A program made the translations under genes and the position numbers. Of a DNA stretch of 64,000 nucleotides, positions 1,146 to 64,000 are shown one piece after another; within the stretch, counting starts at the first letter, position 1, and each line of letters opens with the position of its first letter. Source of the DNA: Patescibacteria group bacterium (lineage in GTDB: Bacteria > Patescibacteriota > Patescibacteriia > UBA9934); contig JBAZWW010000001.1 in assembly GCA_041660165.1 (NCBI GenBank), forward strand, positions 28,009-92,008. Direction: 5' to 3'. Below the pieces are notes generated by a model. It was not told the origin of the DNA. It searched no databases and was given only the letters and a program-made list of their open reading frames with translations.

Positions 1146-1160
1146 TTTCTTCAGAGATAA

Positions 1161-1191: not shown

Positions 1192-1214
1192 TCTGTGTTA
1201 ACCTTGGCCTAACT

Positions 1215-5786: not shown

Positions 5787-5787
5787 A

Positions 5788-6168: not shown

Positions 6169-6211
6169 AAGCGGTTGGCATTTATTCTATCAGGTGTAAA
6201 CTATTCGCACT

Positions 6212-7938: not shown

Positions 7939-7942
7939 AAAA

Positions 7943-9214: not shown

Positions 9215-9243
9215 GGGGTGTTTTTGTGTTATAATTTCGGCGT

Positions 9244-30877: not shown

Positions 30878-30956
30878 AAAACAAAGAGCGCACCAACGGG
30901 CTACGCTCTCTGCAACGATTAAACGTTGAGGACACGTGGCCGCGCTAGTGCGCGAG
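30878..30956. repeat. Conserved ~80-bp 3'-flank element, copy 1, containing a terminator hairpin (agagcg/cgctct stem)
   Basis: About 95% identical to 32888-32966. It lies immediately downstream of the stop of the - strand gene. Confidence 0.7.
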
Positions 30957-32887: not shown

Positions 32888-32966
32888 GAAAACAAAGAGC
32901 GCACCAACGGGCTACGCTCTCTGCAACGATTTAACGTTGAGGTACGCGGCCGCGCTAGTGCGCGAG
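32888..32966. repeat. Conserved ~80-bp 3'-flank element, copy 2
   Basis: aaacaaagagcgcaccaacgggctacgctctctgcaacgat[ta]aacgttgagg...gccgcgctagtgcgcgag is shared with copy 1. Confidence 0.7.
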
Positions 32967-35795: not shown

Positions 35796-36323
35796 TTGTC
35801 GCTTGCTACGCACACAAACTATCATGCGAGACGTATGCGCATTTCTTCTCCCGCTTTTAAGAACGGTGATAGGATCCCATCCCAATATACGTGCGACGGT
35901 GATGATGTGAATCCCGAACTTCGCATTGATGCGGTTCCGGCGGTTGCGAAGAGTTTAGTGCTCATGGTTGATGACCCAGATTCGCCAGCCGGCAACTGGC
36001 TTCACTGGTCTGTCTGGAACATGTCGCCGGATACGCGGGTGATGAAAGAAGACAGCCTGCCCGCCGGCGCGCGGGAGGGAGAAACGGATTTTTCTGAAGT
36101 CGGCTACGGCGGTCCCTGCCCGGGTTACGGCGAGCATGAGTATCGTTTCGCTGTTTATGCGTTGGATACCATTCTTGACGTTGCAAACGGCGCGCCTCGG
36201 CCCATTGTGGAAAAGGCCTTTGAAGGCCATATCATTAGTTCTGCTTTTTTAACCGGTAGGTATCAACGCATTAAGAAAGAAGCGCGGACAGCAAAGACCG
36301 CTAAGGCTGCGGTAAAGGTATGA
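35796..36323 (+). CDS. YbhB/YbcL-family PEBP (Raf kinase inhibitor-like) protein
   Basis: LVLMVDDPDSPAGNWLHWSVWN and GYGGPCPGYGEHEYRFAVYALD. Confidence 0.85.
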   Translation: MSLATHTNYHARRMRISSPAFKNGDRIPSQYTCDGDDVNPELRIDAVPAVAKSLVLMVDDPDSPAGNWLHWSVWNMSPDTRVMKEDSLPAGAREGETDFSEVGYGGPCPGYGEHEYRFAVYALDTILDVANGAPRPIVEKAFEGHIISSAFLTGRYQRIKKEARTAKTAKAAVKV

Positions 36324-36832
36324 GCACCATGGATAGGGATTCGTTTGGAGGTAAGGGACCAAAAAGACAAATGTTTGAGATACAAAGAAAACCTGAACAT
36401 ACTGAGAAGGCCATGCTGAAAGCGCTTGAAGAGGCTAACCCCGGGTTTGCAGATGCGGAGACGCTCCAGCAATTCAACACCGCCATGGAATTACTTTCTG
36501 ATGATGAGCTCAGCCACATGAGCAGTAGACAGTTAGCGGAGATGAATGAGAAATTCGTGGCATTTTATTCTGAAGCCCACAAGCCAAAGCCGGGGGAGGA
36601 ATTGCATCAGCGGTCATTCATGATGTATGTACCGCGGGTGAAACAGGAACAAGACCGCCGAGCGGAACAGCGTTCGCATGATGAGCGCCAGGCAACTGCG
36701 CTGAAAGCAAATCTCAAAGCGGGGACGCCAAAGATCATGCCAAATCCTCTGAACGTAGAACCCATTCGTTCGGCCACGCCTATAGAGAAACCTGAGAAAG
36801 GCTTTTTTGCCAGATTGTTCGGGAGAGAATAA
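36320..36832 (+). CDS. Hypothetical protein, paralog A, with a conserved C-terminal EKPEKGFFARLFGRE tail
   Basis: Paralogous to the next gene; shares the SDDELSHMSSRQLAEMNEKF region. Confidence 0.5.
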   Translation: MSTMDRDSFGGKGPKRQMFEIQRKPEHTEKAMLKALEEANPGFADAETLQQFNTAMELLSDDELSHMSSRQLAEMNEKFVAFYSEAHKPKPGEELHQRSFMMYVPRVKQEQDRRAEQRSHDERQATALKANLKAGTPKIMPNPLNVEPIRSATPIEKPEKGFFARLFGRE

Positions 36833-36852: not shown

Positions 36853-37329
36853 ATGTTGAAAGAAGCGGTAAGGGATAGAAGTGGTGTTCGTATTGAATCG
36901 TCGAGCGGTCGAGAGAGTGTTGTGCGTTTGGCGGAATTGGCTAGAGAAATGCCGGCGCGTGGCGCTGATTTGAAATCGGAGTTTACGGAAGTTTCCGATG
37001 AACAATTGTCCGCTATGTCTGCTAAGGAAATCACGATGCTGATCAATAAATATTTTAAAAGTCGAGAGGAGGACTTTAACGTCTCAGAAAAACAGGGCAT
37101 CAAGATGATGCCTCTTCCTTCAAAGAGGCTTGAAGATGCTCTTCGCAATGCGAAACGGCGCGAACAGGGGGAGCGTGCTAAAAAAGAGGAGGTCCGGGCT
37201 CATCGGAACAAGGCGTTAACGGCAGAGATGATTTCCGCAAGACCCGCTGTTCTCGGTTCAAATGTTTTTGCTCCGCCCGCTGAGAAACCCGAGAAAGGCT
37301 TTTTTGCCAGATTGTTCGGCGGAGAATAA
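36853..37329 (+). CDS. Hypothetical protein, paralog B, with a conserved C-terminal EKPEKGFFARLFGGE tail
   Basis: The last ~48 nt are nearly identical to the paralog A 3' end. Confidence 0.5.
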   Translation: MLKEAVRDRSGVRIESSSGRESVVRLAELAREMPARGADLKSEFTEVSDEQLSAMSAKEITMLINKYFKSREEDFNVSEKQGIKMMPLPSKRLEDALRNAKRREQGERAKKEEVRAHRNKALTAEMISARPAVLGSNVFAPPAEKPEKGFFARLFGGE

Positions 37330-42918: not shown

Positions 42919-44730
42919 TTAAACATCGTTTGGCTTGGCCCGGTCTGCGCGCTTGCGGTCGTTTTCGTTCAGGTACTTCTTGCGCATGCGGACGTTTTGC
43001 GGGGTGACTTCCACGTATTCGTCGTTGTCGATGTACTCGAGGGCGCGTTCAAGGTTCATGTCAATGGCTGGCGTGATGACCACAATGTGATCAGCGGAAG
43101 AAGCGCGCATGTTCGTCAGTTGCTTTTCCTTCACGGCGTTCACGGTCATGGTTTCCTTAGCGCTTTCGCCAATGACCATGCCCTCATAAATTTCTGTGCC
43201 CGGAGCCACGAACATCGCCCCGCGCTCTTGGATCATGGCCAAGGCGTAGGGCGTGGTCTTGCCCATATCACCGGAAATGATAGAGCCGGCAACACGACGG
43301 CTGATTTCGCCCTTATGCGGGGCATAGCCGGAGAAGATATGAGAGAACGTTCCCTGACCCTTGGTGCTGGTCATGAATTCCGTTCGGAAGCCCAAGATAC
43401 CGCGGGTAGGCATGGTGTATTCAAGTCTGGTCGAGCCGTTTTCGCTCATCATGTTTGTCATCTCGCCCTTGCGCTTGCCAAGTTTTTCAATGATTGCTCC
43501 GGAGAATTCGTCGGGGACATCAATCACTACAGATTCCATTGGTTCCATTTTGACACCGTTTTCGGTTTTCAAAATAACCTGTGGCTGGGAAACCTGAAGC
43601 TCAAATCCTTCACGGCGCATCTGCTCGATCAAAATAGCCAGGTGCATTTCGCCACGGCCGGACACGCGGAACTCACCATCGCTGTCTGGGAAGTCAACAT
43701 GCAGTCCCACGTTGATCTCCAGCTCGCGCTCAAGACGTTCGCGGATTTGACGTGACGTTACGAGCGAACCCTCGCGTCCCGCAAACGGGGAAGAGTTCGG
43801 CATGAAGTTCATGGTCAGCGTCGGGCCGTCAATCGCCAGGGTTGGCAAGGCTTCCGCCTCCGGTGACTCGGCAATCGTTTCGCCTACATAAATGTCCGGG
43901 AAACCAGCCACCTGCACAATGTCTCCTGACACGGCTTCATTCACCTCAACCTTGGTGAGCCCCTGGTGGGTGTACAGTTTGGTAATTTTTCCGGTGTAGC
44001 GCGTGCCGTCTTGTTTGATCACGGTTACAGTGGAGTTCATCTTCACAATGCCTTCCACAATACGACCAACAGCAATACGACCAACGTAGTTGTCGTATTT
44101 CAGGTTCGCCACCTGCATGCGCATGGGTTTTTCCGTTTCACTTTTTGCGGGCGGAACGGTTTTCAAAATGAGGTCAAAGAGCGGACGGAGGTCCTTGCTC
44201 TCATCCGTCAGCTCCAGCTTGGCGATGCCTTGCTTGCCAATAGAGTAGATGTGCTTGAAGTCGAGTTGTGCATCCGTGGCTCCGAGCTCAACGAACAGAT
44301 CAAAGATCTGGTTCAACACCCAATCAGGGCGAGCGGTCGGCTTGTCAATCTTGTTGATCACCACAATCGGTTTGAGGCCAAGGGCGAGCGACTTGCGCAG
44401 GACGAACTTCGTTTGAGGCATTGGGCCCTCGTACGCATCAACAAGTAGAAGAACAGAGTCCACCATGCGGAGTACTCGCTCAACTTCACTGCCAAAGTCT
44501 GCGTGTCCCGGGGTATCAACAATGTTGATTTTGACCCCGTCAACCACAATAGCCGTGTTCTTGGCGTAAATGGTAATCCCGCGCTCGCGTTCGAGTTCGT
44601 TAGAATCCATGACGCAATCCTGAATAATGTCACGGTCATTAAACGTGCCAGACTGTTTGAGCATGGCATCCACTAAAGTGGTCTTACCGTGGTCAACGTG
44701 GGCAATGATAGCGATGTTGCGGAATTCCAT
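42919..44730 (-). CDS. typA: Translational GTPase TypA/BipA
   Basis: [16 protein letters not shown]1 motif with EF-G-like domains. The ORF-track start 44796 is probably too early. Confidence 0.9.
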
Positions 44731-44989
44731 AAGTGGCGGAAGTATAGAGGAGAGTCTGGGAACTGTCAACGAATAGATGTGTACTTTTTTAGCCAAAGTA
44801 AGCCAAGTAATAAGCCTTTAGTCAGGATTATCCGTCCTCATCACCCCGTTTTTTGACAAACCTTAGCGATTTAAGTAGGATCCCGGGTCCGTCCTCTCCC
44901 TCACGGGGATGATTGGACGGTGCGACTTGAGTGCAGTGATGACAGTGACGATAGAGTTTGCCGGCGGATTCCCCGCCACGGAGGCAATA

Positions 44990-47632
44990 ATGGATACCAG
45001 TTCGGTTTTCAAGGCGGTAATGCGCTTCGCAACGATGAGCTTCGTGCTCCTCGCGGCGTGTGGAACGAAGGACGGCCTCCCGTCCGGGGCAACCCGGATC
45101 AACAACGAAGCCGAAATGCGTACGTGTGCGAATGAGCAGCGGTTGTTGGCCGGACAGGACCTCGACCGCGACGGTGTGGGCGGGCCGATCCAGTGGTGCC
45201 TGGACCCGCTGGCAGTCGTTCCGCACCTCAGCACGTCCACCGGCGACTGCAATGATGAAAACCCTGCCGTGTTTCCGGGCGCCGTCGAGATCGCGAACAA
45301 GATCGACGACGACTGCGACGGCTTGGTGGACGACAGCTCGATTACGTCCGTCATGGACTGTAAGTCGAATCTGGACGGCGACAACTACGCCTCCACGCTC
45401 GGCGTCATGCACAGCGAGGATTTGGACTGCCTGGATGCGGGGGAAGCCCCGGCGTCCACGCAGGGTGGCGACTGTGATGACACGCAGGCGGGCATCTACC
45501 CGTTCGCACCTGAGACGTGCAACGGTAAGGATGATGGTTGCGATGATATCATCGACAACGCCCTGGGGTACACCGATTTCCACGCGGACAAGGACGCGGA
45601 CAGCTTCGGTTCTGCCACGGACATCGTGAACTCGTGCGCCCAACCCGCGAACTACGTGAACAACCAGAACGGCGTGGACTGTGACGACGCTCACGCGTCT
45701 GCGCACCCCGGCGGGACGGAAGTCTGCGACGCCCTCGACAACAACTGCAACGGCACCGCGGACGAGGGGTTGGGCTGTAACGCGTTCTACTTCACGGACG
45801 CGGACAAGGACAGCTACGGCAATCCCGTCACGGCTCACACCATCGCGGTAGCTGGCGACGTCACGAACGGTCTGGACTGCGACGACGCGAACGTGCTCCG
45901 CAATCCCGGCAAGGTCGAAGTCCAGGGCAACGGCCTCGACGACGACTGCGACGACGGTACGTCGGACAACCCGGGCAAGTTCTGCCGGGACTTCGACAAC
46001 GACGGCGTGGGCGACGAGCTCTACGGAACGCGCACTACGGCGCAGGCCGGGTACGTGGCGTCGTGCGACGACTGTCGCGACGACTTGAACCCTGTCCATC
46101 CGGGCGCGATCGAGGTCATCGGCGACGAGGTCGACAACGACTGCAACCCCGTCACGAAGGATACGGTCACGACCGGCACGTACTACGCGGACAAGGACGG
46201 GGACACCTACGGCGACAAGTCCGTGGTGGTCACCGTGGCCACGCCCGGGTACGTGGTGGACAGCACCGACTGCAACGACAACGACAAGACGGCTCACCCC
46301 GGCGCCACGGAAGTGGTGGGCGACGGCGTGGACCAGGACTGCAGCGGGTTCGAGGTCTGCTTCCTCGACAACGATAGCGATAAGTTCCGTGACACCTCGG
46401 GACAGCTCTACAACTCCAACGACCTCGACTGCGTGGATACGCGCGAGGCCGGAATCGGGGTCCCGACCACGGACTGCGATGACAACGACCCCACCATCAA
46501 CCCGAACGTCACGGAGGTGATCGGCGACCAGAAGGACCAGAACTGTGATGGGAAAGAGGTCTGCTACCTCGACATCGACCAGGACGGCTTCCGGTTCATC
46601 GGAAGCCCGAACGATACGTACGACAGCAATACCGATGTGGACTGTCTCGACAAGTTCGAGGCCTCGGCCGCGACTCCGGCAACGGACTGCGCCGAAATCG
46701 ACAAAAACATTCACCCCGGCGCGATGGAGATCCCGGCCGACGGGATCGACCAGAACTGCGACGGCAAGGAGGTCTGCTGGCGGGACGTGGACGACGACGA
46801 TTACCGGAAGGACACCACTTCCACGATCGACTCGTCGGACATGGACTGCGTGGATACGCAGGAAGCGGTGGCCACCACCGTGGACTGCAACGACAAGAAC
46901 GATACGGTTCACCCCAACGCGACGGAGACGTGTAACAGCGTCGACGACAACTGCGACGGCAAGGTGGACGAGAACGCCACGGGCACCACGTGGTACGCAG
47001 ATACGGACAAGGACGGTTACGGGAACGGTTCCGTGACCGCCGTCGGATGCACGGCCCCCACGGGCTTCGTGTCGGACAAGACCGACTGCGACGACGCGCA
47101 CGCGTTGAGTTACCCTGGCAAGGTCGAGGTCTGCGATGCCCTGGACAACAACTGCGACGGGCTCGTGGACAACGGTCTCACGTGCTCGAACAATCCCCCG
47201 CCTCCCCAGGGGATCTGCCCCACGGGCCAGCGGAGGTACACCGGCACGTTCCAGGTCGGGAGCGCGATCGAGGGCCCGAACATCCTCGACGTGTACGGTA
47301 GCGTGACTGGCGGAGGCGTGAACGAGTTCCCCGCTGGCAGCTGGACCAACGTGGCGCGGTTCCACGTGACCAGGCGCGGAGGCACGGCCACGTTCACGGA
47401 CGAGTCCTGTGTGGCGGATGGCGCCACGGTCCTGTTCTCGGTCTATCTCAAGGACCGCAACGGCCAGGACCACTGGAGCGCGGAAGGTGGTCGCAACGGC
47501 TGTAGCGTGACCGGGGATACTATGGCCCTGGCGAACAGTGCCACGCTCGCGCACGCGTGGATTCCCACCACGCCCGTGTGGAACGGCTACACGGACATTC
47601 GCGAGGGCTGTAACATCAAGTGGCCCTTCTAG
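44990..47632 (+). CDS. GC-rich lipoprotein with about 10 Cys/Asp-rich repeats (MopE-like putative metal-binding motif) and DxDxDG calcium-type motifs
   Basis: RBS GGAGG lies 7 nt upstream of the ATG. Signal peptide and lipobox LLAAC. Repeats of the form DCDD...HPGAxExCDxxDNDCDG and DKDGDTYGD. The opposite strand carries a 908-aa stop-free shadow ORF. Confidence 0.8.
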   Translation: MDTSSVFKAVMRFATMSFVLLAACGTKDGLPSGATRINNEAEMRTCANEQRLLAGQDLDRDGVGGPIQWCLDPLAVVPHLSTSTGDCNDENPAVFPGAVEIANKIDDDCDGLVDDSSITSVMDCKSNLDGDNYASTLGVMHSEDLDCLDAGEAPASTQGGDCDDTQAGIYPFAPETCNGKDDGCDDIIDNALGYTDFHADKDADSFGSATDIVNSCAQPANYVNNQNGVDCDDAHASAHPGGTEVCDALDNNCNGTADEGLGCNAFYFTDADKDSYGNPVTAHTIAVAGDVTNGLDCDDANVLRNPGKVEVQGNGLDDDCDDGTSDNPGKFCRDFDNDGVGDELYGTRTTAQAGYVASCDDCRDDLNPVHPGAIEVIGDEVDNDCNPVTKDTVTTGTYYADKDGDTYGDKSVVVTVATPGYVVDSTDCNDNDKTAHPGATEVVGDGVDQDCSGFEVCFLDNDSDKFRDTSGQLYNSNDLDCVDTREAGIGVPTTDCDDNDPTINPNVTEVIGDQKDQNCDGKEVCYLDIDQDGFRFIGSPNDTYDSNTDVDCLDKFEASAATPATDCAEIDKNIHPGAMEIPADGIDQNCDGKEVCWRDVDDDDYRKDTTSTIDSSDMDCVDTQEAVATTVDCNDKNDTVHPNATETCNSVDDNCDGKVDENATGTTWYADTDKDGYGNGSVTAVGCTAPTGFVSDKTDCDDAHALSYPGKVEVCDALDNNCDGLVDNGLTCSNNPPPPQGICPTGQRRYTGTFQVGSAIEGPNILDVYGSVTGGGVNEFPAGSWTNVARFHVTRRGGTATFTDESCVADGATVLFSVYLKDRNGQDHWSAEGGRNGCSVTGDTMALANSATLAHAWIPTTPVWNGYTDIREGCNIKWPF

Positions 47633-47744
47633 GGAGCCAGCGGACGACGGCCATCAGGTGACACATTCGGGAGCGTAATCCCGATTCGGAAGGGCGGCAC
47701 CGCGTGTGCCGCCCTTTTTCTATTTGTGATAAAGTGTCGGGGAT

Positions 47745-51139: not shown

Positions 51140-51214
51140 TCGGGGGTAGCTCAGTGGCAGAGCAAGGGACTGTTAATCCCTGGGTCGTGGGTTCGAGCCC
51201 CACCCCCCGAGCCA
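51140..51214 (+). tRNA. tRNA-Asn (anticodon GUU) with encoded CCA
   Basis: Manual fold: acceptor TCGGGGG/CCCCCGA, D-arm GCTC-AGTGGCA-GAGC, anticodon arm AGGGA-CTGTTAA-TCCCT, and T-arm GTGGG-TTCGAGC-CCCAC. Confidence 0.85.
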
Positions 51215-52842
51215 GAATGCACATCTTGCGTTGCAAGGTGTGTTTTCTTTTTGTCGTGCCTTGAAAAGAGGGCAGAATAGCCGTCTTTTGCGATAAACGA
51301 GAATTCATTGTTAGAAAAACGGAGTTCGGTAAACACCTGGGCGATGATCTGATGCTTTTCTATGTCTAGCGCGTATTTGTAGTACAAACCCGCCCTTTTA
51401 ACGAGTTCGGAAAAGGTTAGGATGTATTTGAGCATTTCGTGTTCAGATTGGTGAATCTCCCCCAAAGAAGCCTGAACCTCACGGTACTCGTTTTCTAGGC
51501 GCGTTACATCTGTCGCGTAATCCTCGGGACTGATAGCTTTAGTGCGGAGGAGCGTGATCTTCTCGTTTTTCAAATAGTCGAGATCTGCATAGATCCGATC
51601 GACATGTCTTTGGAGTTCATGGCGTTTCTTGTCGCGCTCGTCAGCGACCTTATTGAGCCCTGTGCGCGTTTTGGCCTCGATCTCGGATAACTCTTCGTCT
51701 GAGAATGCAATCTTCCCCAGTAGGCCCCCGATATACTCATGTACCTTCTCATTGCTCAGGTTTGGATTCGGATTCGTGCAACCCTCTTTGCACTTTGCGC
51801 GAAAATAGAGCTGACCCTTCTGTTCGTAGGGGGAGTAGGATCGACCGCACGAACACTTGATGACCCCACGGTAGGTTACGAATAATTTATCGGGGTAATG
51901 GACGCCAGTGGCACGTTGTGCTAGCGCGGCCTGAACCTTATAAAAGAGACCAGCTTCAACGAGGACGGGGTGGATGCCATTAATCACGCTTCCTCGATTT
52001 TTCAACTTACCAATATAGAACGGATTATTCAGTATATTTTCAATGGATTTAGTATTTACGGGGCGCGATATTTTTGGAGCAAAGTTATCGTTCCCAGAGA
52101 GAATTTCTTCTTTAGTACGTTTTGGTCGAATCGGTTTGGTTGTGAGTCCTTGTTTATTTGCCCATTTTGCGAGTTGGCTAAAGCTCCACTCACCAGTCGC
52201 GTATAGTTCAAATATCCGTTTTACAGTTGGAGCGCGATCGGGATCGAGTACCTTGTTATCCGACCCATTGTCTAAATAACCGATAGGGGAAACGTACGAA
52301 CAATATCCTTTCGCTCTAATCTTTTCTAAGCCCGCACGTGTTTTCTGGCTGATATCTCGCGAAAAGTGTTCAGAAAATGTTCCATCAATATCGCGGTGTA
52401 AGGCACCTGCCGCTGTTTGTTCATACTGTGCCTGTACAAACCGAATATCAACACGCGAATCATCAATCATTCGTTTGATGACCATTGCATCCTGTTCGTT
52501 TCGGCTGAGTCTATCCCAACATAGGACGATCACCCCCTTGAATTTGGATTGCTTGAGATCCTGCATCAATCTCAGGAATTTTGGCCTGCCTATATCGAAG
52601 ACGATTTGTCCTTTCGTATTAAAATCTATTCCTGCTGTTTTATATGCCGAATGTTTTTCTCGGATGATCCCGTCCGTGTAGTAACCGTCGATTGATCCTT
52701 TTACGACAGGCAATCCGAGCGATTTAGCGTGACTCAAATTGGCTCCCTCCTGATAGTCGAGTGAGTTTTTTTGGTTATTGGCTTCGTCTGTACTTTTGCG
52801 AGTGTAGACGAGGTATTCCTGACTGTGATCGGATTCTTTCAT
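51151..52842 (-). mobile_element. Large serine recombinase (integrase). Its 3' end overlaps the tRNA-Asn 3' half on the opposite strand.
   Basis: Resolvase catalytic domain YTRKSTDE with the Ser nucleophile, followed by recombinase and zinc-ribbon/coiled-coil domains. 563 aa. Confidence 0.85.
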
Positions 52843-53036
52843 AGTGGGTTCAAGTTAGACGATACTGCACTTTTCGTAATCTTTGGAGGAGTGACGGTCA
52901 TACCTTCAAATTCATAGCCCTCGAACTCTAAACGCCTATGAATACGCTCAAGGATCGCTGAGAACGCCAAGAACCCGCCGATCTCATTCTCGGAGAATGT
53001 TTGGTTGTGGGGTTGGGACTCTTGGGGTTCAATCAC
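52839..53036 (-). CDS. Small island protein, translationally coupled to the integrase (ATGA overlap). It may be an excisionase or regulator.
   Basis: 65 aa. Its stop overlaps the integrase start. Confidence 0.35.
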   Translation of the reverse strand: MIEPQESQPHNQTFSENEIGGFLAFSAILERIHRRLEFEGYEFEGMTVTPPKITKSAVSSNLNPL

Positions 53037-53043
53037 AAATTAT

Positions 53044-53241
53044 TTACTTCGTTCCGTAGATCTTTCTGCGTTCATCAATCGAAAGCATCTTTTTAGGTAT
53101 CCATGCCCTATAGCCGCATGATGGTTTGCGTGCACAGAAGAACTGCACTGCTCGTTTGATTGCGTAGAAGCCGATGTAGCTTTGGTAGCACCACGGACAG
53201 GACGTCATTTTGAGAGTTCCCCGTTTTTTGAAGTTAGACAT
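53044..53241 (-). CDS. Small zinc-ribbon protein
   Basis: CPWC...CARKPSC is a four-Cys motif. 65 aa. Confidence 0.4.
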   Translation of the reverse strand: MSNFKKRGTLKMTSCPWCYQSYIGFYAIKRAVQFFCARKPSCGYRAWIPKKMLSIDERRKIYGTK

Positions 53242-53505
53242 AACTTTTTCTCTCCCTCGGGTTACGGGGGAGTCTTCTTGGAAGGTTTAACGGTTCGTGG
53301 TCACGGGGTAGAACCCGAGCACACTGGGATGACATCTCTGTCAGTTCTTCAGCTTCGGGCGTGGTTCGTGACCACGAAACAATGAATGAGGGTATCGTCT
53401 GGGTTTAACGTCTTCTCCGATACGTCAGACAGTTGAACGAGAGATACTTTCTATAAAACCAAAAAGCATCCCGAAGGATGCCTAGTGGTGAAGAATGTGA
53501 ATATT

Positions 53506-54378
53506 CTAAATAAAGGAGGGGGGTCTATTTGCGAAAACGATTTTTCGTTTCATTCGGTTTACAATTGAAGAAATCGCTCCACTTTCTACTGAAATTCCGT
53601 CTGCTTTTAGATCATTAGCTGTACTTAGTTCGAGGTAACCGCTCGAACTCGATCTTTGGGAAGGCGGTGTAGCTCTGTTTTTAATGTATGCGTTATATAT
53701 TCTTACATCCTCAGGGAATCGAGTATAAGCTTTCTTTCTCTTAGTCGATTGGGTATCCAGTATTTTTCTTTGTATTATTTTTACGGATTTCCAATTATTA
53801 TTTATGTAATCTAGCACTTCGGCTTTACTTGTACCAGCCATAAATTCAAACCTGATCTTTCGTTCTATTTTCTGTGGGTGTTCGTCGTAATGAACGCTAC
53901 CAACCTCACACCCGAGCATGAATATATTGGACATTATGATGTATTCGGTAGCAATGATTCTGGCGCTTGTCATACTGAAAATATCCTCGTAGATTCTGAG
54001 CGTGCCACGCGTTTTGTCTTCGGGGTCGGTAATTACCAAGGGAACGATATGTTTAACATATTCATATACCTCGTCATCAAGTTGTTCGCCGATGGAAAAT
54101 CTGGCGGGGTACAGGTTACCGTCTGCAATATAGCCCTCTTTTAGATATCTCATTGACTCATCCGATAAATGGTAGATGTCATGGGTTTCGGGCGTATTTC
54201 CAGAGATGCCCATCTGTTTACGGATTCGGGCAACGAATAATTTGAAATCCTTTTTGAGTAGGAGTAGCTGAAAGATTTCCGCCCCTCGTTTTTTTAGCGC
54301 GTCGCCACAATAGAGCGAGTTGAGGATTTGTTCGTCACGTTCGGAGAAGAAAATCTCCGTATAATCGTATTTATACAT
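53506..54378 (-). CDS. Hypothetical island protein
   Basis: 290 aa. No motif recognised. Confidence 0.45.
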   Translation of the reverse strand: MYKYDYTEIFFSERDEQILNSLYCGDALKKRGAEIFQLLLLKKDFKLFVARIRKQMGISGNTPETHDIYHLSDESMRYLKEGYIADGNLYPARFSIGEQLDDEVYEYVKHIVPLVITDPEDKTRGTLRIYEDIFSMTSARIIATEYIIMSNIFMLGCEVGSVHYDEHPQKIERKIRFEFMAGTSKAEVLDYINNNWKSVKIIQRKILDTQSTKRKKAYTRFPEDVRIYNAYIKNRATPPSQRSSSSGYLELSTANDLKADGISVESGAISSIVNRMKRKIVFANRPPSFI

Positions 54379-54566
54379 AGCGCGAACGTGTGAATCAGTG
54401 GAGGTGGATTTCGGTATTGCCGAGCGAATTAACCTAATAACCTAGCTGATATATTTAACTATAACCGAATAACCGATTTTGTATTTCCCCAGTGTTAGCC
54501 GTTTTATCAAGTAATGGCTCGATCGAGCAAGAATTTGCAAAATTGCTGGCTCATGGTATCGTTTTT

Positions 54567-54705
54567 GCCATCTACCTACTGTTTTCGCCGCACAAGGCGT
54601 TGTCTTTTTCTAACCGATTGCGGATAGAGATGGGCAGCTGCCTCCACAATCGGACAGCCTTGTGCTGACCGAAAACAGTGGGTAGATAGGTGGCTGTCCT
54701 TTTTT
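54567..54705 (+). ncRNA. Candidate structured small RNA with a terminal Rho-independent terminator
   Basis: Nested inverted repeats: gccatctacctactgttttcg paired with cgaaaacagtgggtagatagg, and cacaagg paired with ccttgtg. It ends in ggacagcc...ggctgtcc followed by tttttt. Confidence 0.3.
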
Positions 54706-54760
54706 GATACTCGGACAGTTACCTGGAGATTAATTAACTAATTACCCATATCATCTACGT

Positions 54761-55285
54761 ATGGACAAGGATGCAGCCAAAGAAACGATCAAGAAACCGA
54801 TATATAGGCGTTGGTGGTTTTGGTTGTTGGCATTTTTAGCATTCGTTATGATCGTGGGACCATTTTTGCCAGAATCGACAACGACCCCATCTCCCGTTGT
54901 GGTTTCTTCTGGGACAGGTTCTGACACGATAAACGTTGACAAGCCAACACCCGCCCCTGAGCCAGAGAAAGTAGTAGCGACCACGAGTGCTGTGAAATTT
55001 TATCAGGATTATACGACTAACAATATAGCCGCTGAGCAAAAATATAACGGTCATTTGGTGAAACTCACTGGCGTAATTTCAAGTATCGGCAGGGATATTC
55101 TTGGGAAAGCGTACATTGTGTTGAAGGGTGATCAGTATGGTTTTAAGGGAATTCAGTGCATGTTGGACGATTCATCGATGGCGAAGGTGGCTGAGGTCAG
55201 CATTGGCGACTCGGTCACTCTGACTGGCAGGGTTAAGGATAATGTTCTTACAAATATTCTTATTGACGGTTGTTTGATCGACTGA
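54761..55285 (+). CDS. Membrane-anchored OB-fold (tRNA_anti-like) protein
   Basis: TM helix, then KYNGHLVKLTGVISSIGRDILGKAYIVLKGDQYGFKGIQCML. Confidence 0.5.
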   Translation: MDKDAAKETIKKPIYRRWWFWLLAFLAFVMIVGPFLPESTTTPSPVVVSSGTGSDTINVDKPTPAPEPEKVVATTSAVKFYQDYTTNNIAAEQKYNGHLVKLTGVISSIGRDILGKAYIVLKGDQYGFKGIQCMLDDSSMAKVAEVSIGDSVTLTGRVKDNVLTNILIDGCLID

Positions 55286-58200
55286 ACCTAACTGATGCCC
55301 CAAACTCATTCCACCACCACTCCATAATCGAACGTGGGGCAATACAGGGGCACACGGCTCTTGTCGGTGGCGTGAACAGGCGGTCGAGTATCAGACTTAA
55401 CCAACAGAAGGCCATATCTCGGATGTGGCCTTTTTGTAATTTCCGAAATGTGAGAGTATCAGATGAATCTATGTTCTTAGAGCCACGCATCAAACGTTGC
55501 GAATCACTAAAGGATCTTCTCGACTCCCCCGAGGATCCAGGTTTTTTTGACGAGGATAGCGATGGTATCGACACGGTTCTTCGGTCACAGAGAGCTTTTT
55601 TGATTAGTGAGCCTGGATATGGAAAATCGAGTGTATTGCTGCAGATTATTGAGAAGAGCCAAAAGGCAAATGAATCCTGCATTTATATCGATCTCAAAAC
55701 AATTACAAACAAGTCATTGTGCGCTTTAATTAAAGATAACGAGGAAGTTTACACATCGCAGGGAGCGATTGACGACTTTTCTCGTAAACCCATTTTCCAA
55801 ACAAGCAAATTTAGAGCCAAAAATTCAAGAGAGGTAATTTTTTGTTTAGATGCCCTTGATGAGGTTAGACAGGAGTATTTTTCTGAAACGGTAGATGAAA
55901 TTAAGCGCTTTATCGCAAAGTACGATAAGGCAACCATCATCCTGACTTGTCGTAAGAATTATCTGGCAAAATGGCAACATCTTTTTGCGGATCAATCTCT
56001 GGAGTTTTTTAGTCTGCTCTGTTTTAACTCAGATCAAATTCGTTCTTATTTGGTGGCCGAGGGAATCGCTGAGGAAACGGTTGAAATTGTTTTAGAGAAG
56101 ATGAACTTCAGAAATCGGCTGCCGATTCTCCGTGTACCTCGTTATCTTGGTATGTTAGCAAGATTCGTAAAAAAGGAAGGAGCTGAGGCGCTTATTGGTA
56201 TTACTCGAGGTAGGCTATTTGATTTTTTTATTGATGAGAATTTGAGGAACGAACAGGAAAAGGTAGATTTGAATAAAAACGCGATTATTAAGAAGGTTCT
56301 TGAGAAATTGGCCTTAGTAATGGAAATCTATCAAACAAGCCAAATCAGTAAAAATGAGTTGATGGAATTTTTTGATGATGTTCAGTCCAATCTCAGTATT
56401 AGTTTTTTGAACCAGGTTCCGATCGAGATTCTTTATGAAAGATCCTTACTTAAGGAAAACCCTGAAACCGTTGAATTTGTTAACACCGAGTTTCAGGAAT
56501 ATTTGGCCGCAAAGGAGATTTGCAGGCTCGGAAAGACCGACCAAGTAGTTTTCGATTTGATGGTAATAAAAGAGTTACACGAGATACACCCATCATGGAT
56601 TAATACGCTGTCTTTCTTACTGGAAGAGGATATTTCGTTGTTACCAGACATAATTAAATATATTGCCAAAAAATCCAGCCTCGAGAACTACCACGCGTTA
56701 TTGCCCATCACTGGGGTAGATAAGCTTACGATCCTTGCCAAAGGGAAGATCTTCCAAAGTATACTAACCAATTATTGCGATAACGGTCATTGGATCGATC
56801 ACAATGTTGCGAGAAACCTTAGTTGGTACTTCGATAGTACCCAGCACAAATTTCTCGACTCATTATTCTCTTCAAAGAATAATGATGAAACTTTTGGTGA
56901 GGTTATAAAAGCGAACGTTTTATTATTGATAGGATACATCTCCGAGAGGGGCTTGTTGAGCGTGAAGCAGTCGGGAGTTTGGCAACAACGAATTATCGAC
57001 ACAATCGGTTCACCCTATCAGAACGAGGTGCTGTTAAGATTCTCAATCACTGCTCTGGGAGCCTTTAAGAATCCGACGCTTTTTTCAACCAGGTTGGCTG
57101 ATATTATTTTTGCCACCAAGGAGGACACGATTATCTCTGGCCTTATATACGCAATTGAAGATTCCGATTCGCTAACTAGTGATGCCATCAATTGTATTCT
57201 GAGAGGGATAGAGATGGGTAATATTTCTGCCAGATTACTTTTACCAAGAATTACTGATAAACCCGCAATTAACAATGTGGTAGATTCGTTGATTACAAAC
57301 GAAAAATTATTGGTGGAATTTTTGGATCACGAAAGTATTCACGTGAGAGACACAGAAAAGATCCTTAAGAACCTCGAAAAAGTCACCGATGAACATCTAC
57401 TTGTAAAGCTTAAGAAATTATTTAACAGATTTTTTTCTGACAGCACGTATTTTGATGCCCAACATTCTAAATTTGTTCTTGGTCTGGCAGTTTTGATAGA
57501 CAAGAAATCACCAGGCTTTATTTTTGAACTAATAGCAACGTACAAGGACACCGATTTTTTGCACGCCCTACCTAGCATATTTGCAGCCTTGCTGAAGGCC
57601 GATGACGTGAAGGAGTTTTCCGAGCAGATGTCTAAGCATAGATGGATCGCGTTTAATACAGTCTACATAGCGGCTTCTGCCCAAACTGATGTCGCAAAGG
57701 GTATAGAGGCTGAGGGACGAAAATGCATGAATGATGAGTTCACGTCATCAGATAAATCGCAGGTGAAGACGACGCATATCGATGCGAAGAGGGAGCGAGA
57801 CGTGTATCAATTATTTAAATACAAACTTGAACCAGAACAGAAGAAATATTCCCTTGATTTATTCCAGTACTATCGAGGGCAAGAGAATATTATTGAAAAA
57901 TACATTTCCACTGAAGAAAAAGAACGGCTAATATATCTTGTTATTGATGCATTGCAGGTTTTTGATCCAGGGACACAAAAGTTGACTATTACAAATAGAG
58001 CCGAGGGTTCGTCACAGTACACGACAAACCAGTTCATCCATGTATTCGGCGATGCTCTCAGTGTGGCTGCAGATCTGAACGTAAATGTTTCTCACCTGAG
58101 ACAACACATAGTCAACTATATACCGTTTTCATACAGTGAACACCTGAAGGCGATATTTCACTTGGTGAAGCGGCCGACTAAGGATGAGATCGTGCTATTA

Positions 58201-59472
58201 CTAAAGATTTATAAAAATAGAGCCGATGATTTGCGAGAATTCATGCCCAGTAGCCTTATTGAATTCGTTCAGGTTCATCAGTTATCGGAAGCTGTAATGA
58301 TTCTAAAGTCATTCGTAAATTCTGAGAAAGTTTCGAGCTTCGATCGTTGTGCGGCATTCAATACAATCGTTGGATTAGATGGAGAGACCAAGCTATATGC
58401 TCGGTTAATATTCAATAAGTATAGGAACAGTCGTAAACCCGCGGAGATATTGTTGCGAGATTCTGCAAATGCTCATCTGATAGAAAAGTATTCAGTTTCC
58501 GATGCAGTTAACTGGAGGATTGAAAAGCTTATTGAGAAAGCTGAGCCGTTTAAAAGGGTAAAAGGAGTCCATGCAGTTGGAAAATTGGAGGGGGAGTTGA
58601 TGGATAAGAATTTCGCAAAACCATTATATGCGCTAAAAGGTTCGGCATATCGGAAGTTATTTCTTGACCTAATAGAGAGGGCTTTGGAAGTACATGGGAA
58701 GAGTGAGGAATATCATGATTACGCTTCGTATCTTTGGTCTATCAGCATTGAATATTTTAGGAATCTAAAGCAAGCTAAAAGCTACGAATCATTACATGAT
58801 ATCGAGGAGCTTATTGAACGAAATAAGGAGCAGTCAGGTATCAATTGGTTTCTATATACCTATCAGAATCTCAAGAGAGAGTATGCAATATTTATAGGGA
58901 AACCAAACAATATCGCGGATTGCATAAAGCAATATAATTACTTTAAGACAAGTTCATATCTTGTGGTGAGTACATCCGACGATCTATTTAGGATCATCAT
59001 GGGGGCGTGCAATGATAAGATCAGATCATGGGTAGAGAGCGAGGGCGCATATCATTTGATTAGAACTTATCCAAAGGCCGAGGATCTAATTCAGAAAACA
59101 ATAAAGACACAGCTAACTAATTGCTTACTTGAAGCTGGATTACGCAAGGAAGAGATCCAGGTTCAACGAGAATCGCAGTTGCTCGATGATAAGCGCACCG
59201 ATTTTCTCGTCTACTACGGTTTCATAGGCCCCATTCTGATTGAGGTAAAACTCTCGGACAATCCTGAGATAACAAACGGTGGCAAACGTTTGCAGTATAG
59301 AAAAAAGCTTCTCCAATATCTCGATGGTACGGCCTCACATCGAGGTATCTATTTGGTGTTTCTCCTCAAATCAGAGGATCTTCGTTTTGACACAATACTG
59401 AAGAATCAGTACAAGAATGACCGTATTGAGGTGGTGTCATTAATCTGCAAACCCAAAAGTATCATCGGGTAG
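55270..59472 (+). CDS. NACHT-family STAND NTPase (1400 aa) with a long helical C-terminal region and a C-terminal PD-(D/E)xK-like motif
   Basis: Walker A SEPGYGKSS, Walker B IFCLDALDEV, sensor TIILTCRKN and the winged-helix FQEYLAAKEI hallmark. The C-terminus has TDFLVYY...ILIEVK. The true start may be an internal ATG near 55423. Confidence 0.8.
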   Translation: MFDRLNLTDAPNSFHHHSIIERGAIQGHTALVGGVNRRSSIRLNQQKAISRMWPFCNFRNVRVSDESMFLEPRIKRCESLKDLLDSPEDPGFFDEDSDGIDTVLRSQRAFLISEPGYGKSSVLLQIIEKSQKANESCIYIDLKTITNKSLCALIKDNEEVYTSQGAIDDFSRKPIFQTSKFRAKNSREVIFCLDALDEVRQEYFSETVDEIKRFIAKYDKATIILTCRKNYLAKWQHLFADQSLEFFSLLCFNSDQIRSYLVAEGIAEETVEIVLEKMNFRNRLPILRVPRYLGMLARFVKKEGAEALIGITRGRLFDFFIDENLRNEQEKVDLNKNAIIKKVLEKLALVMEIYQTSQISKNELMEFFDDVQSNLSISFLNQVPIEILYERSLLKENPETVEFVNTEFQEYLAAKEICRLGKTDQVVFDLMVIKELHEIHPSWINTLSFLLEEDISLLPDIIKYIAKKSSLENYHALLPITGVDKLTILAKGKIFQSILTNYCDNGHWIDHNVARNLSWYFDSTQHKFLDSLFSSKNNDETFGEVIKANVLLLIGYISERGLLSVKQSGVWQQRIIDTIGSPYQNEVLLRFSITALGAFKNPTLFSTRLADIIFATKEDTIISGLIYAIEDSDSLTSDAINCILRGIEMGNISARLLLPRITDKPAINNVVDSLITNEKLLVEFLDHESIHVRDTEKILKNLEKVTDEHLLVKLKKLFNRFFSDSTYFDAQHSKFVLGLAVLIDKKSPGFIFELIATYKDTDFLHALPSIFAALLKADDVKEFSEQMSKHRWIAFNTVYIAASAQTDVAKGIEAEGRKCMNDEFTSSDKSQVKTTHIDAKRERDVYQLFKYKLEPEQKKYSLDLFQYYRGQENIIEKYISTEEKERLIYLVIDALQVFDPGTQKLTITNRAEGSSQYTTNQFIHVFGDALSVAADLNVNVSHLRQHIVNYIPFSYSEHLKAIFHLVKRPTKDEIVLLLKIYKNRADDLREFMPSSLIEFVQVHQLSEAVMILKSFVNSEKVSSFDRCAAFNTIVGLDGETKLYARLIFNKYRNSRKPAEILLRDSANAHLIEKYSVSDAVNWRIEKLIEKAEPFKRVKGVHAVGKLEGELMDKNFAKPLYALKGSAYRKLFLDLIERALEVHGKSEEYHDYASYLWSISIEYFRNLKQAKSYESLHDIEELIERNKEQSGINWFLYTYQNLKREYAIFIGKPNNIADCIKQYNYFKTSSYLVVSTSDDLFRIIMGACNDKIRSWVESEGAYHLIRTYPKAEDLIQKTIKTQLTNCLLEAGLRKEEIQVQRESQLLDDKRTDFLVYYGFIGPILIEVKLSDNPEITNGGKRLQYRKKLLQYLDGTASHRGIYLVFLLKSEDLRFDTILKNQYKNDRIEVVSLICKPKSIIG

Positions 59473-59490
59473 CCTCATTGTTTTCGTCAT

Positions 59491-60303
59491 ATGGATCCGA
59501 AAAGCTTCACAGAGCAATTGTTGTTTTCGACAGTTCTTATCAGGATGCTTGATGTAAAGATGCAACCATTTGGACACGGAACTGGCTTCTTATATTTATT
59601 GGACCTTGCACCAGGTGGGGGCCAGCAAAAGATCTTGCTAGTATCAAATAAACACGTGTTAAACAAATGCAGGGCGATCAGTATTGATTTCCACGCGCAA
59701 CAGAATAATCTACCGATTTTAGATAATGTAATAACAGTTCAGCTGCGCTATGATGATGTCTGGCACCATGATACGGCTGATGTTGCGTGCATCGACATAA
59801 CTGAAAGCGTTAAGGAGTTTCAAGAGCGAATTTATATAAGGTGTGTTGGTGAAGACTCATTACTAGATAGTTCCGATGAACTTCTCGACGTTCACCAGGA
59901 CATTTTCTTTGTAGGATATCCGTTACGTATTTACGATAAGAAGAATTATTTGCCCATCGTCAGGTCAGGAATCACTGCATCACATCCGAATATTCCTTTT
60001 AATGGCAAACCTGAATTTATTATTGATGCATCTGTGTACGAGGGCTCAAGCGGTAGCCCTGTATTTCTTGATTTGTTAAAACCAAACCTAGCTTTAGGGA
60101 AGCTAGCAATGGGTGCAGCGCCTAAATGCATCGGGATTATTTCGACTAACTTTAACGTTCTTTCGGAGTTGAAGGAGGTTTCGCTCCCTAGTGAAAAACT
60201 TGCCTCTTCCCAGGTAGTTGGTCTGGCAACGGTCTGTAATAGCCAGACCATCAGGGAGGTCGTTGGGCAGGTATCGGCTAGTTACAAATTGCGAAATCCC
60301 TGA
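59491..60303 (+). CDS. Cytoplasmic trypsin-like serine peptidase (Trypsin_2/S1-like)
   Basis: Catalytic triad His (SNKHVLN), Asp (DVACIDI) and Ser (GSSGSPVF). No signal peptide. It lies 18 bp after the NACHT gene. Confidence 0.75.
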   Translation: MDPKSFTEQLLFSTVLIRMLDVKMQPFGHGTGFLYLLDLAPGGGQQKILLVSNKHVLNKCRAISIDFHAQQNNLPILDNVITVQLRYDDVWHHDTADVACIDITESVKEFQERIYIRCVGEDSLLDSSDELLDVHQDIFFVGYPLRIYDKKNYLPIVRSGITASHPNIPFNGKPEFIIDASVYEGSSGSPVFLDLLKPNLALGKLAMGAAPKCIGIISTNFNVLSELKEVSLPSEKLASSQVVGLATVCNSQTIREVVGQVSASYKLRNP

Positions 60304-60699
60304 CTTCGATCGCCTTGAGTCTTTCTGCACTAAACTTAACTGCTTGATAAATTGTTGATAGTTCAGAAAACAGGTACTCTGGGGAGCCATAAAAATATGA
60401 CATCTTGGTGTCATATTTTTAATTTACGGGCAGGAGAGCAAGCAAATACTTTGGCGTACGTTAGGGCGAGAACGGCGGTGTGGTGTTTCGTTACCAGATA
60501 GAACCGCGAGATGGTGGATTGTCGTGGGGAGCGGTGTTGAGCCGAGAGCCGAAGCCGAGTCCCACCACCTGAGTCATTAGCGGGTGTGTGGGATGTCCAT
60601 GTGCCTGATCAACAACAAGCCAAGCAATCCGCTGGCTTTTCATATTTTCATTTATCATGCTATACCATTTATGCTCAACGAAATGTTCGAAAAACAAAC

Positions 60700-61728
60700 A
60701 TGACCTACGACGAGCTCGTAAAGTTCATTCAGGGCCATTTCACCGATGGGTTGGTTTTGGTATTGGGCTCAGGGCTATCCGCGGCCGAGGGAATTCCTGA
60801 TATGCCTGCCCTTGCTACATACCTTTCAGAACAAGCGATTGAGCTGACCGGTGCTGATAAGGCGGCCTGGTTAAACATAAAAACAGTGCTTGATACGGGA
60901 GAAGGACTTGAAGCGGCTCTGCTAAGACATGCTCCGTCTTCGACTTTGGAAGCGTGGATTGTTCGAAAGACCTGCGAGCTGTTGATGCCGATAGAACGCA
61001 AGATCATGAGCGCTATGTTCAGGGGCGACACGACACTCCGTTTGAGCAAGTTTCTTTCTAAGATTCTCAAGCCGACGGAAGGATTACCCATTCTAACGAC
61101 AAATTATGATCGGTTGATCGAGATTGCCTGTGAGATGGAGGGATTCCATGTTGATACAGCAGCGGTTGGAAATTACGCAGGTACATTTGATCATGAGCGC
61201 AGCCTCATGGGATCAAGCAAAAGAATAGCAACTCGTGGAAAAACACCTTTCCTTGAGCATTACCCGCGAGCCGTCGTTCTTAAGCCGCACGGTAGTTTTG
61301 ATTGGTACAGATCAGGGGATTCTGCGAGGCGGTGTGGTTTTGATCTGGTGGGTGTGGAAAGACTGATAATCACCCCCGGAACCAACAAGTATAAGGCCGG
61401 GTACGAAGCACCATTCGATAAACACAGAGATTTGGCAAATTCCTATATTGATAAAGCGGCGAAACTATTTGTAGTAGGCTATGGTTTTAATGACGATCAT
61501 CTGCAGACTCACCTGATTAAAAAAATTAATGATGGCCTACCGACATTGATCTTAAGCCGCTCTGAAAACCCTAAAATTCAAAAGCTGGCAAAGGAGGCGC
61601 TGCGTTGTGTAGCACTCTCTAAATTAAACACGGGTACAGGTGTTTCTGTTACAACGAAGGATACCCACTTCGAACACCCTGGTGACGATCTATGGGATTT
61701 AGGCGTTTTAACTAAAGAACTTCTATAG
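60700..61728 (+). CDS. SIR2-like (SIR2_2) NAD-utilising defence protein
   Basis: LVLVLGSGLSAAEGIP, ILTTNYDRLIE and VLKPHGSFDW. I chose the ATG at 60700; the ORF-track start is 60586. Confidence 0.85.
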   Translation: MTYDELVKFIQGHFTDGLVLVLGSGLSAAEGIPDMPALATYLSEQAIELTGADKAAWLNIKTVLDTGEGLEAALLRHAPSSTLEAWIVRKTCELLMPIERKIMSAMFRGDTTLRLSKFLSKILKPTEGLPILTTNYDRLIEIACEMEGFHVDTAAVGNYAGTFDHERSLMGSSKRIATRGKTPFLEHYPRAVVLKPHGSFDWYRSGDSARRCGFDLVGVERLIITPGTNKYKAGYEAPFDKHRDLANSYIDKAAKLFVVGYGFNDDHLQTHLIKKINDGLPTLILSRSENPKIQKLAKEALRCVALSKLNTGTGVSVTTKDTHFEHPGDDLWDLGVLTKELL

Positions 61729-61729
61729 T

Positions 61730-63499: not shown

Positions 63500-64000
63500 G
63501 GATGGTGCGGTAGATGCATTTTGATTTTAAGATCACGCGCCTCTCATTGAGAGCCAACTCGGACTTTAGCTTGTCGAGTAGATCGCGCGTTTTTTTTCGT
63601 GTGTCCTTCTTGAAAATATATTTTGTACACGTGTATACGTCTATGCCGGGCATCATTTCGGCAATTTTTCCGATAACGGCATAGCCACCTAGGTCGGAGA
63701 ACAGGGTTGCTAGTTTTTCCCGTTAGAACCATACTGTGGATATTATCAATTACCATTTGAATCTATGTTCCTTATCCCTGGGCAGTTATTAACGATGATA
63801 ACGTTTCCTGGCGTTTTGACCTATGAGTTATTGTATCTTGCGTTTTCCAGATCCGCCCATTTACAGGGAACTCCCAATACAAAAAAATTGCCGACTAATT
63901 TTCAACAAGCAGCCACGGTAATTGCGGGTCCATTTGTTATTAGTTCGATGCTCTGTTTTATTTTTGCGTTTATCGCCGGTGTCGGTAATTTTCAGGACGT

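Follow-up and report, generated by a model that had tools for sequence, protein, structure and literature searches.

This analysis concerns a gene for a repeat-containing lipoprotein at positions 44990 to 47632 of a 64,000-nucleotide stretch of DNA (hereafter the window) from contig JBAZWW010000001.1 of a Patescibacteria group bacterium. The gene stands out by its high content of G+C (GC), above all at third codon positions (GC3), and an earlier note on the same DNA had seen in it a probable horizontal acquisition from a high-GC donor. The comparisons described below lead us to favour, with moderate confidence, a different reading: that the gene is resident in a Candidatus Uhrbacteria lineage (ultra-small bacteria of the Patescibacteria, or Candidate Phyla Radiation, CPR), that its product is a cell-surface lipoprotein which diversifies rapidly and is built of a stalk and a head, and that the high GC3 of the gene is maintained and does not mark a recent import. 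The features of the locus, other than the subdivisions of the protein given further on, are as follows.

44853-44881, + strand: sigma-70-like promoter match TTGACA-17-TAGGAT, 10/12 in a consensus scan, 109 nt 5' of the ATG
44980-44984, + strand: GGAGG ribosome-binding site, read in the sequence, with a 5-nt spacer to the ATG
44990-47632, + strand: lipoprotein coding sequence from the listing of open reading frames (ORFs), 880 aa, stop codon 47630-47632
44990-45061, + strand: signal peptide with lipobox L-A-A-C, residues 1-24, the lipobox ending in Cys24 (nt 45050-45061)
47688-47718, + strand: intrinsic-terminator-like hairpin followed by a T run, 13 pairs of which 8 are G-C, a pattern match
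44828-47554, - strand: 908-codon antisense open frame in the codon-aligned register, a shadow and not a gene

The frame on the + strand is open from 44909 to 47632, and the ATG at 44990 has the GGAGG sequence and its spacer directly upstream; the orthologue in a sister species (locus L076, see below) also begins MDT. Both the ribosome-binding site and the lipoprotein signal peptide had been read correctly in the earlier note. The signal peptide, MDTSSVFKAVMRFATMSFVLLAAC, has positive residues (K8 and R12), a hydrophobic core and a terminal L-A-A-C24 that meets the lipobox pattern [LVI][ASTVI][GAS]C. It is conserved in the L076 orthologue, as MDTKAFECAMRLAVMSFVLLAAC, and the orthologue in a second species (L001) has the lipobox LMGSC at the equivalent position. 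The promoter match and the terminator-like hairpin, which are pattern matches only, may bracket a single-gene unit.

The contrast in composition that had been estimated by eye is borne out by calculation. The lipoprotein gene has a GC of 0.636 and a GC3 of 0.864, against means of 0.506 (standard deviation 0.045) and 0.558 (standard deviation 0.080), respectively, in the 47 other ORFs of the window, which places it at z = 2.9 for GC and z = 3.8 for GC3. Its surroundings are thus clearly not of similar composition: in 1-kb windows GC is 0.63, 0.63 and 0.615 within the gene and about 0.50-0.52 on both sides, and in steps of 30 codons the rise in GC3 sets in at the start codon and is over at the stop codon. 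The codons of every amino acid are shifted towards G/C endings, as seen in the shares of GAC (0.82 in the gene versus 0.43 in the host), AAG (0.93 versus 0.49) and TTC (0.96 versus 0.40), and the same protein recoded with the codon usage of the window has an expected GC3 of 0.551. The stop-free antisense frame, which had also been pointed out before, is a by-product of this codon bias, since an antisense stop in that register needs a sense TTA, CTA or TCA codon and the gene contains none. Having no Pfam match either, the antisense frame was ruled out as a true gene. Secretion alone was considered as the correlate of the high GC3 and rejected, since a pilin-like ORF (663-1145) and an ORF with a signal peptide (14622-15389) have ordinary GC3.

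In Pfam the protein matches PF11617 (Cu-binding_MopE, 'putative metal-binding motif') in 10 stretches, with 277.2 bits against a cut-off of 27 (E = 3e-84), in agreement with the roughly ten Cys- and Asp-rich MopE-motif repeats and calcium-type Asp loops that had been seen in the translation; a search of NCBIfam gave no match. With unit boundaries drawn by eye and with phmmer, residues 52-728 divide into ten units of 64-75 aa each. The N-terminal half of a unit holds a DxDxDG-type loop, for example WYADTDKDGYG, and the C-terminal half the motif DCDDx6PGxxExCDxxDNDCDG. AlphaFold2 models the units with confidence (predicted local distance difference test, pLDDT, of 76-96) as mostly irregular with short hairpins. 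The units and the head domain that follows them are listed here, for some units with the amino acid identity or the synonymous divergence (dS) relative to the L076 orthologue.

45143-45334, + strand: unit U1, aa 52-115, PF11617
45335-45559, + strand: unit U2, aa 116-190, divergent from L076 (aa identity 0.50, dS 1.17)
45560-45766, + strand: unit U3, aa 191-259, PF11617
45767-45964, + strand: unit U4, aa 260-325, first and third unit cysteines both missing
45965-46159, + strand: unit U5, aa 326-390, PF11617
46160-46351, + strand: unit U6, aa 391-454, the segment closest to L076 (aa identity 0.89, dS 0.08, nucleotide identity 0.93), GC3 0.953
46352-46555, + strand: unit U7, aa 455-522, 'EVC...DLDC' subtype, dS 1.11 versus L076
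46556-46768, + strand: unit U8, aa 523-593, 'EVC...DLDC' subtype, aligns to MopE* residues 3-47
46769-46972, + strand: unit U9, aa 594-661, in the AlphaFold2 model of U9-U10 (mean pLDDT 85.7)
46973-47173, + strand: unit U10, aa 662-728, canonical 'WYADTDKDGYG...DCDD...PG..E.CD..DNNCDG', dS 0.14 versus L076
47174-47629, + strand: C-terminal non-repeat head domain, aa 729-880, beta-rich and nearly an orphan

The protein has 45 cysteines, 44 besides that of the lipobox. The first and third unit cysteines are lost together in both U4 and U6, and the 'EVC...DLDC' subtype (U7-U9) gains another pair. Such paired loss and gain fits disulfide pairs (C1-C3 in U4), so that the unit cysteines are probably bonded and the protein probably extracytoplasmic. 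Compared as DNA, the units share 61-89% identity with each other (61-75% in most cases) and make up no tandem array. The repeats are therefore old and have not been homogenised, and we rejected both concerted evolution and recent unit duplication on these grounds.

The head domain has few relatives. It has no Pfam match, and a Foldseek comparison with the PDB gave nothing better than E = 0.25; a weak likeness to C2/Ig-like beta-sandwiches was not used. Among 1.84 billion representatives searched exhaustively with phmmer, a single match with E <1e-5 lay outside the protein's own cluster, namely P0121, a protein encoded at L076 (44% identity, E = 6e-22); six weaker matches, with E values of 2e-5 to 9e-4, were all to unrelated repeat proteins. 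A metagenome scan added a single short contig, and the head was found outside its own cluster only in the typA slot of L076 and on that contig.

Orthologues of the lipoprotein gene lie beside typA in two sister species, whose flanking genes are 80-97% identical to those of the window. In L076, where TypA has 96-97% aa identity and the flanks a dS of 0.70-0.88, the gene order is Maf, a 161-aa gene, TypA, the 169-aa P0121 and the lipoprotein orthologue. The latter has 65% aa identity, is collinear across all ten units with nine PF11617 stretches, and is cut off by the contig end; its GC3 is 0.889, against 0.57-0.65 for its neighbours (Maf, the 161-aa gene and TypA). P0121 (L076 3742-4251, + strand) consists of a transmembrane helix and the head domain alone, and the window has no such gene. 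L001 is more divergent, with TypA at 93-94% aa identity and a TypA dS of 1.5, RpoD and the homologue of window gene w47745 being saturated. The order here is the w47745 homologue, a PF11617 lipoprotein and TypA. The L001 orthologue has about 34-39% aa identity, seven PF11617 stretches, a C-terminal domain that aligns with the window head, and its own 714-aa antisense shadow frame; its GC3 is 0.884 and that of its neighbours 0.45-0.52. The gene is thus present, with the same architecture and equally GC-rich, in close relatives, and by the earlier note's own standard this counts against a foreign origin. Given the same slot and the same rare head in three genomes, separate imports from a distant phylum are not credible, and the lipoprotein gene beside typA has been inherited within the Uhrbacteria clade.

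A further contig, from a relative with a TypA 92% identical to that of the window (L002, CAYGEQ010000024.1), includes only 40 nt upstream of typA and breaks off exactly at the expected place of the lipoprotein gene; this may be an assembly break at a repeat-rich, GC-rich locus. It is one of several contigs from metagenome-assembled genomes (MAGs), L007 and L014 among them, that are titled 'uncultured Gammaproteobacteria bacterium' and carry a TypA 70-92% identical to that of the window. They are probably mislabelled bins.

The synonymous sites of the flanking genes are substantially turned over with respect to L076 and saturated with respect to L001. Little should therefore remain of a GC signal that predates these splits, but all three species have a GC3 of 0.86-0.89. 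This was put into numbers with a two-state (G/C versus A/T) back-projection calibrated on the 4-fold degenerate sites of the flanking genes, which gives per-lineage decay factors of 0.61 and 0.32 for the time since the L076 and L001 splits, respectively. When the present GC at 4-fold sites (GC4, 0.82-0.91) is projected back, the ancestral GC4 comes to 1.03-1.04 for L076 and 1.4-1.7 for L001; conversely, an ancestor at GC4 0.95 would today stand at 0.84 and 0.67, respectively. Since the ancestral GC required exceeds 100%, the high GC3 is not a decaying relic.

Two further Patescibacterial loci show a similar pattern. L071 has four adjacent genes for lipoproteins or proteins with signal peptides, three of them carrying PF11617, with GC3 of 0.75-0.86 against 0.44-0.51 in the neighbours. 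The spacers at this locus, 446-606 nt in length, have a GC of 0.42-0.47 between genes of GC 0.60-0.64. An imported 9-kb high-GC island would bring GC-rich spacers with it, and neutral decay would lower spacers and third positions alike, so L071 is not a foreign island. In L070, from an Uhrbacterium of 60% GC, the PF11617 genes have GC3 of 0.82-0.87, compared with 0.66-0.80 for most neighbours. PF11617 lipoproteins thus recur in other Patescibacteria, and a repeat protein of this kind is not the oddity in its host for which it had been taken.

The bias is a matter neither of the repeat nor of the head as such. PF11617 genes of three Bacteroidota have GC3 of 0.26-0.57, near the values of their neighbours, so that high GC3 is not forced by the repeat. 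The head has a GC3 of 0.862 within the lipoprotein and the stand-alone P0121 a host-like one of 0.624, and the bias therefore belongs to the gene and not to the domain. In the choice among G/C-ending codons, moreover, the log-likelihood favours the host by about 12 units over Myxococcus and by about 15 over the 60%-GC Uhrbacterium: CTC exceeds CTG, TTG is retained, and the share of GTC is 0.42 in both gene and host but 0.23 in Myxococcus. We conclude that in this and other Patescibacterial lipoprotein genes the extreme GC3 persists as a property of the gene itself, and is not what a recent import from a high-GC donor has left behind. Its upkeep may be due to selection on G/C-ending codons or to recombination-linked GC-biased conversion.

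The protein evolves fast. Compared with L076, the lipoprotein has a nonsynonymous divergence (dN) of 0.275 and a dN/dS of 0.56, while the flanks have dN of 0.02-0.12 and dN/dS of 0.03-0.17. The dS of single units has a spread of about 15-fold, from 0.08 in U6 and 0.14 in U10 to 1.11 in U7 and 1.17 in U2, and unit dN follows unit dS. Segments much younger than the flanking housekeeping genes thus abut segments older than those genes, a mosaic which indicates that alleles have recombined, in the manner of adhesins and other contact proteins. The word horizontal in the earlier note retains some truth in this sense, since the mosaic points to the exchange of segments among related lineages, although not to a recent import from a high-GC donor. 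A diversity-generating retroelement was considered as the source of the hypervariability and rejected, as no repeat of at least 40 nt that could be its template ties the gene to any other part of the 64-kb window.

Exchange of this kind might also account for the composition. In a sub-variant of the reading favoured here, which we think rather unlikely, alleles or segments would be repeatedly replaced by homologous recombination from a GC-rich Uhrbacteria allele pool, and GC-biased conversion would be the cause of the high GC3. That segments have been exchanged recently is shown by unit dS values of 0.08-1.17 against 0.70-0.88 in the flanks, high-GC Uhrbacteria do exist (L070), and the GC3 of segments rises as their dS falls (Spearman rho -0.74, p 0.01, n = 11). 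This correlation is partly circular, however, because stronger codon bias lowers the measured dS, and it was set aside as proof of biased conversion. Conversion tracts running across the spacers of L071 should have enriched these in GC, which they have not, and the low DNA identity between units gives no sign of homogenisation. Codon choice, finally, is closer to the background of the window than to the 60%-GC Uhrbacterium.

A recent acquisition from a high-GC donor such as Myxococcota, with the GC-richness as donor composition that has yet to ameliorate, appears less likely again, and we regard it as improbable. It would explain the GC3 excess over the other ORFs; the background GC3 of Myxococcus is about 0.90 and close to that of the gene; the top-scoring matches outside the protein's own cluster include Myxococcota proteins, and more distant Uhrbacteria have no such gene beside typA. 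Those scores, though, come from summed repeat matches with identities of 33-39% and never higher; taken by phylum, the matches outside the clade are mixed and include Patescibacteria, which speaks for neither side, since repeat proteins give no reliable tree. A recent import would also have to be squared with same-slot orthologues in two sister species that share a head almost unique to them, with GC3 equally high in three species despite substantial to saturated turnover of the flanks, with spacers of host-like GC in L071 and with a host-like choice among G/C-ending codons. No integrase, transposase or tRNA is present at the gene borders, the nearest tRNA being at 51140. The acquisition proposed in the earlier note is therefore not supported.

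As to function, the favoured reading of a resident stalk-and-head lipoprotein would have the protein exported by the Sec pathway and then lipidated at Cys24, giving it a membrane anchor. The ten PF11617 units, each small, mostly irregular and disulfide-held, would form an extended stalk displaying the beta-rich head of about 150 aa, which is the probable ligand- or host-binding part. The DxDxDG sequence is a classical Ca2+ loop, and the Asp loops of the units most likely bind Ca2+, which would stiffen the stalk. The likeness of C-x-D-x-x-D-N-D-C-D-G to a teneurin-type motif, to which the PF11617 consensus has been aligned (PMC3278476), and the stabilisation of MopE* by calcium (PMC3423442) point in the same direction. 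The repeat family occurs in surface proteins across many phyla, and the window protein may act in an adhesin-like way on a host cell or a substrate, in keeping with the episymbiotic lifestyle proposed for CPR. A literature search found no study of PF11617 proteins in CPR.

A copper-binding or copper-acquiring surface protein in the manner of MopE or CorA, which the name of the Pfam family brings to mind and which the earlier note had in view, is very unlikely. A His precedes the Pro-Gly/Pro-Asn motif in five of the ten units, and the first 24 residues of MopE* have been implicated in weak Cu(II) binding (PMC3423442). This His is not conserved across the units, though, and a phmmer search of the PDB aligns residues 551-596 of the query, in unit U8 alone, with residues 3-47 of MopE* (2vov_A), while nothing aligns to its Cu(I) core. 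The high-affinity Cu(I) site, which comprises two His residues and one kynurenine, belongs to the portion of MopE* seen in the crystal, from which the N-terminal 46 residues are missing (PMC3423442). Among the neighbours scanned on both sides, from DnaG to GreA and beyond, there are no copper-handling genes. The 'Cu-binding' label of PF11617 should not, therefore, be taken as its function.

A mis-join of a high-GC fragment of another organism into a CPR contig is barely conceivable, and is excluded by a cluster of proteins at least 90% identical drawn from NCBI, JGI and Logan assemblies together with two further assemblies whose corresponding slot holds a GC-rich orthologue; the change in composition is abrupt at the gene borders, as in a chimera, but it coincides exactly with the start and stop codons and the gene is framed by a host-like promoter and terminator.

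Several points nevertheless weigh against the reading of a resident gene with maintained GC3. The two-state model behind the ancestral GC4 values is crude and assumes neutral 4-fold sites in the flanks, and for L001 the alignment is uncertain and the background GC4 differs (0.62 in the window versus 0.46 in L001); the direction of the result is clear all the same. The low dS of some units could result from recent allele replacement out of an unsampled GC-rich pool instead of from maintenance in place. In more distant Uhrbacteria the place beside typA is taken by other genes, none of them GC-rich, so that an older acquisition into the Uhrbacteria clade is possible. The comparison covers three syntenic genomes and two further Patescibacterial loci. 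On the side of the protein, AlphaFold2 gives the head as beta strands with low confidence (pLDDT 27-70), structure searches found no solved structure resembling the repeat unit or the head, and the adhesin function, Ca2+ binding and disulfides are all read from sequence.

The other genes of the neighbourhood point to a host among the Patescibacteria (Uhrbacteria). The neighbours comprise DnaG, RpoD, Maf, a DUF3800 protein, TypA (divergent, 42919-44796), a 400-aa ORF without Pfam match and GreA. TypA, RpoD, DnaG, Maf and GreA have their best matches in MAGs of Uhrbacteria or Patescibacteria, and the TypA of the window is 80-94% identical to that of MAGs named Candidatus Uhrbacteria or Patescibacteria group. 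The exact lipoprotein sequence is on record at NCBI as 'putative metal-binding motif-containing protein [Patescibacteria group bacterium]'.

Two ORFs with a lipobox were found in the window, the gene described here and a second one at 30957-31892 on the - strand. The latter lipoprotein, MRSFTLLFLLSLVAC, consists almost wholly of repeats based on 7 aa (GDVSNLSGNVTNITGDVSDLKG...), with DNA periods that are multiples of 21 nt; it has only weak coiled-coil and LPP matches in Pfam, and in GC3 (0.785) it ranks second in the window. Two direct copies of a 54-nt sequence, at 30878-30931 and 32889-32942 and 98% identical, flank a 2-kb segment that contains this gene together with one for a RibD_C-domain protein; the copies could have arisen by duplication of a terminator or a regulatory element, or be the scars of an insertion. 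In the adjacent ORFs 36320-36832 and 36853-37329 the last 48 nt (36785-36832 and 37282-37329) are 94% identical, which suggests that the two may be tandem paralogues with a conserved C-terminal tail. Over the end of the window, 51140-64000, GC falls to 0.39-0.48, and the region resembles an integrated defence island: tRNA-Asn (51140-51214) is abutted by a gene for a large serine recombinase (51151-52842, - strand; 89% identical in L001), and further on come a 1400-aa NACHT-like NTPase (55270-59472) followed by a trypsin-like peptidase, and a SIR2-like gene with a HerA helicase (60586-63499).

The pattern may extend beyond this locus. We suggest, tentatively and with clearly less confidence than we have in the resident nature of the window gene, that Patescibacteria keep a class of surface lipoprotein genes, including PF11617 stalks, at GC3 of 0.75-0.89, where the genome as a whole has about 45-50% GC. 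Synonymous sites would be under a force specific to such genes, whether selection (on mRNA or on translation) or, at mosaic loci for contact proteins, GC-biased conversion linked to recombination. Foreign-gene signals based on composition would in that case be systematically misleading in CPR genomes: a gene 13 GC points above its genome, as here, would be called foreign by any detector based on composition, and the comparison says that it is resident. Such loci would then mark fast-evolving proteins by which episymbionts contact their host or substrate, and a bias that held across CPR would mean that synonymous sites in very small genomes are either under an unrecognised constraint or subject to biased conversion. 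CPR bacteria are thought to live attached to other cells, and their contact proteins are largely unknown. A predicted lipid-anchored, mosaic stalk-and-head protein at a conserved locus is a concrete and testable candidate for one.

Among known systems, MopE and MopE* of Methylococcus capsulatus (PDB 2VOV) and CorA of Methylomicrobium album have one copy of the PF11617 motif (D-C-x-D...P-G-A-x-E...D-x-N-C-D-G) in common with the window protein. MopE is likewise surface-associated or secreted, as predicted for the window protein, but its single motif precedes a copper-binding core of about 290 aa with a His/His/kynurenine site; in the window protein there are ten units, and a core of this kind is absent. 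Since the motif of MopE* lies in the residues absent from the crystal, it is without an experimental structure or a proven metal site.

The Myxococcota 'MopE-related' proteins are extracytoplasmic and carry long arrays of the same two-part unit, with the identities given above extending over about 75% of the query. They differ in their partner domains (RCC1, lectin C, FG-GAP and others), in their anchoring (some by a MYXO-CTERM tag) and in being without the head domain, and the GC3 of their genes matches that of their high-GC hosts (0.88 versus 0.90). In Bacteroidota such as Flexithrix dorotheae the same repeat serves as a spacer or stalk in surface proteins, but these have a C-terminal domain of the type IX secretion system (Por_Secre_tail or CHU_C) instead of an N-terminal lipobox, and the GC3 of their genes is host-like or lower. 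Among eukaryotic Ca2+-binding repeats rich in Cys and Asp, thrombospondin type 3 repeats, the teneurin Cys-rich motif and the DxDxDG loop all resemble the C-x-D-x-x-D-N-D-x-D-G-x-x-D of the window protein.

The Patescibacterial lipoproteins of L071 share with the window protein the lipobox, the PF11617 array and a variable non-repeat C-terminal domain. The four GC-rich genes of that locus occupy 713-9758 beside Wzy and glycosyltransferase genes, the three with PF11617 have differing C-terminal domains, and an Asp-rich lipoprotein without Pfam match lies at 2596-3255. In both L071 and L070 the PF11617 genes exceed their neighbours in GC3, as in the window, but they have other C-terminal heads, lie at other loci (beside glycosyltransferase/Wzy genes) and have about 33-34% identity to the window protein. 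An ancient import of the repeat module into CPR is possible; the window protein itself is a lineage-specific variant of a known repeat family.

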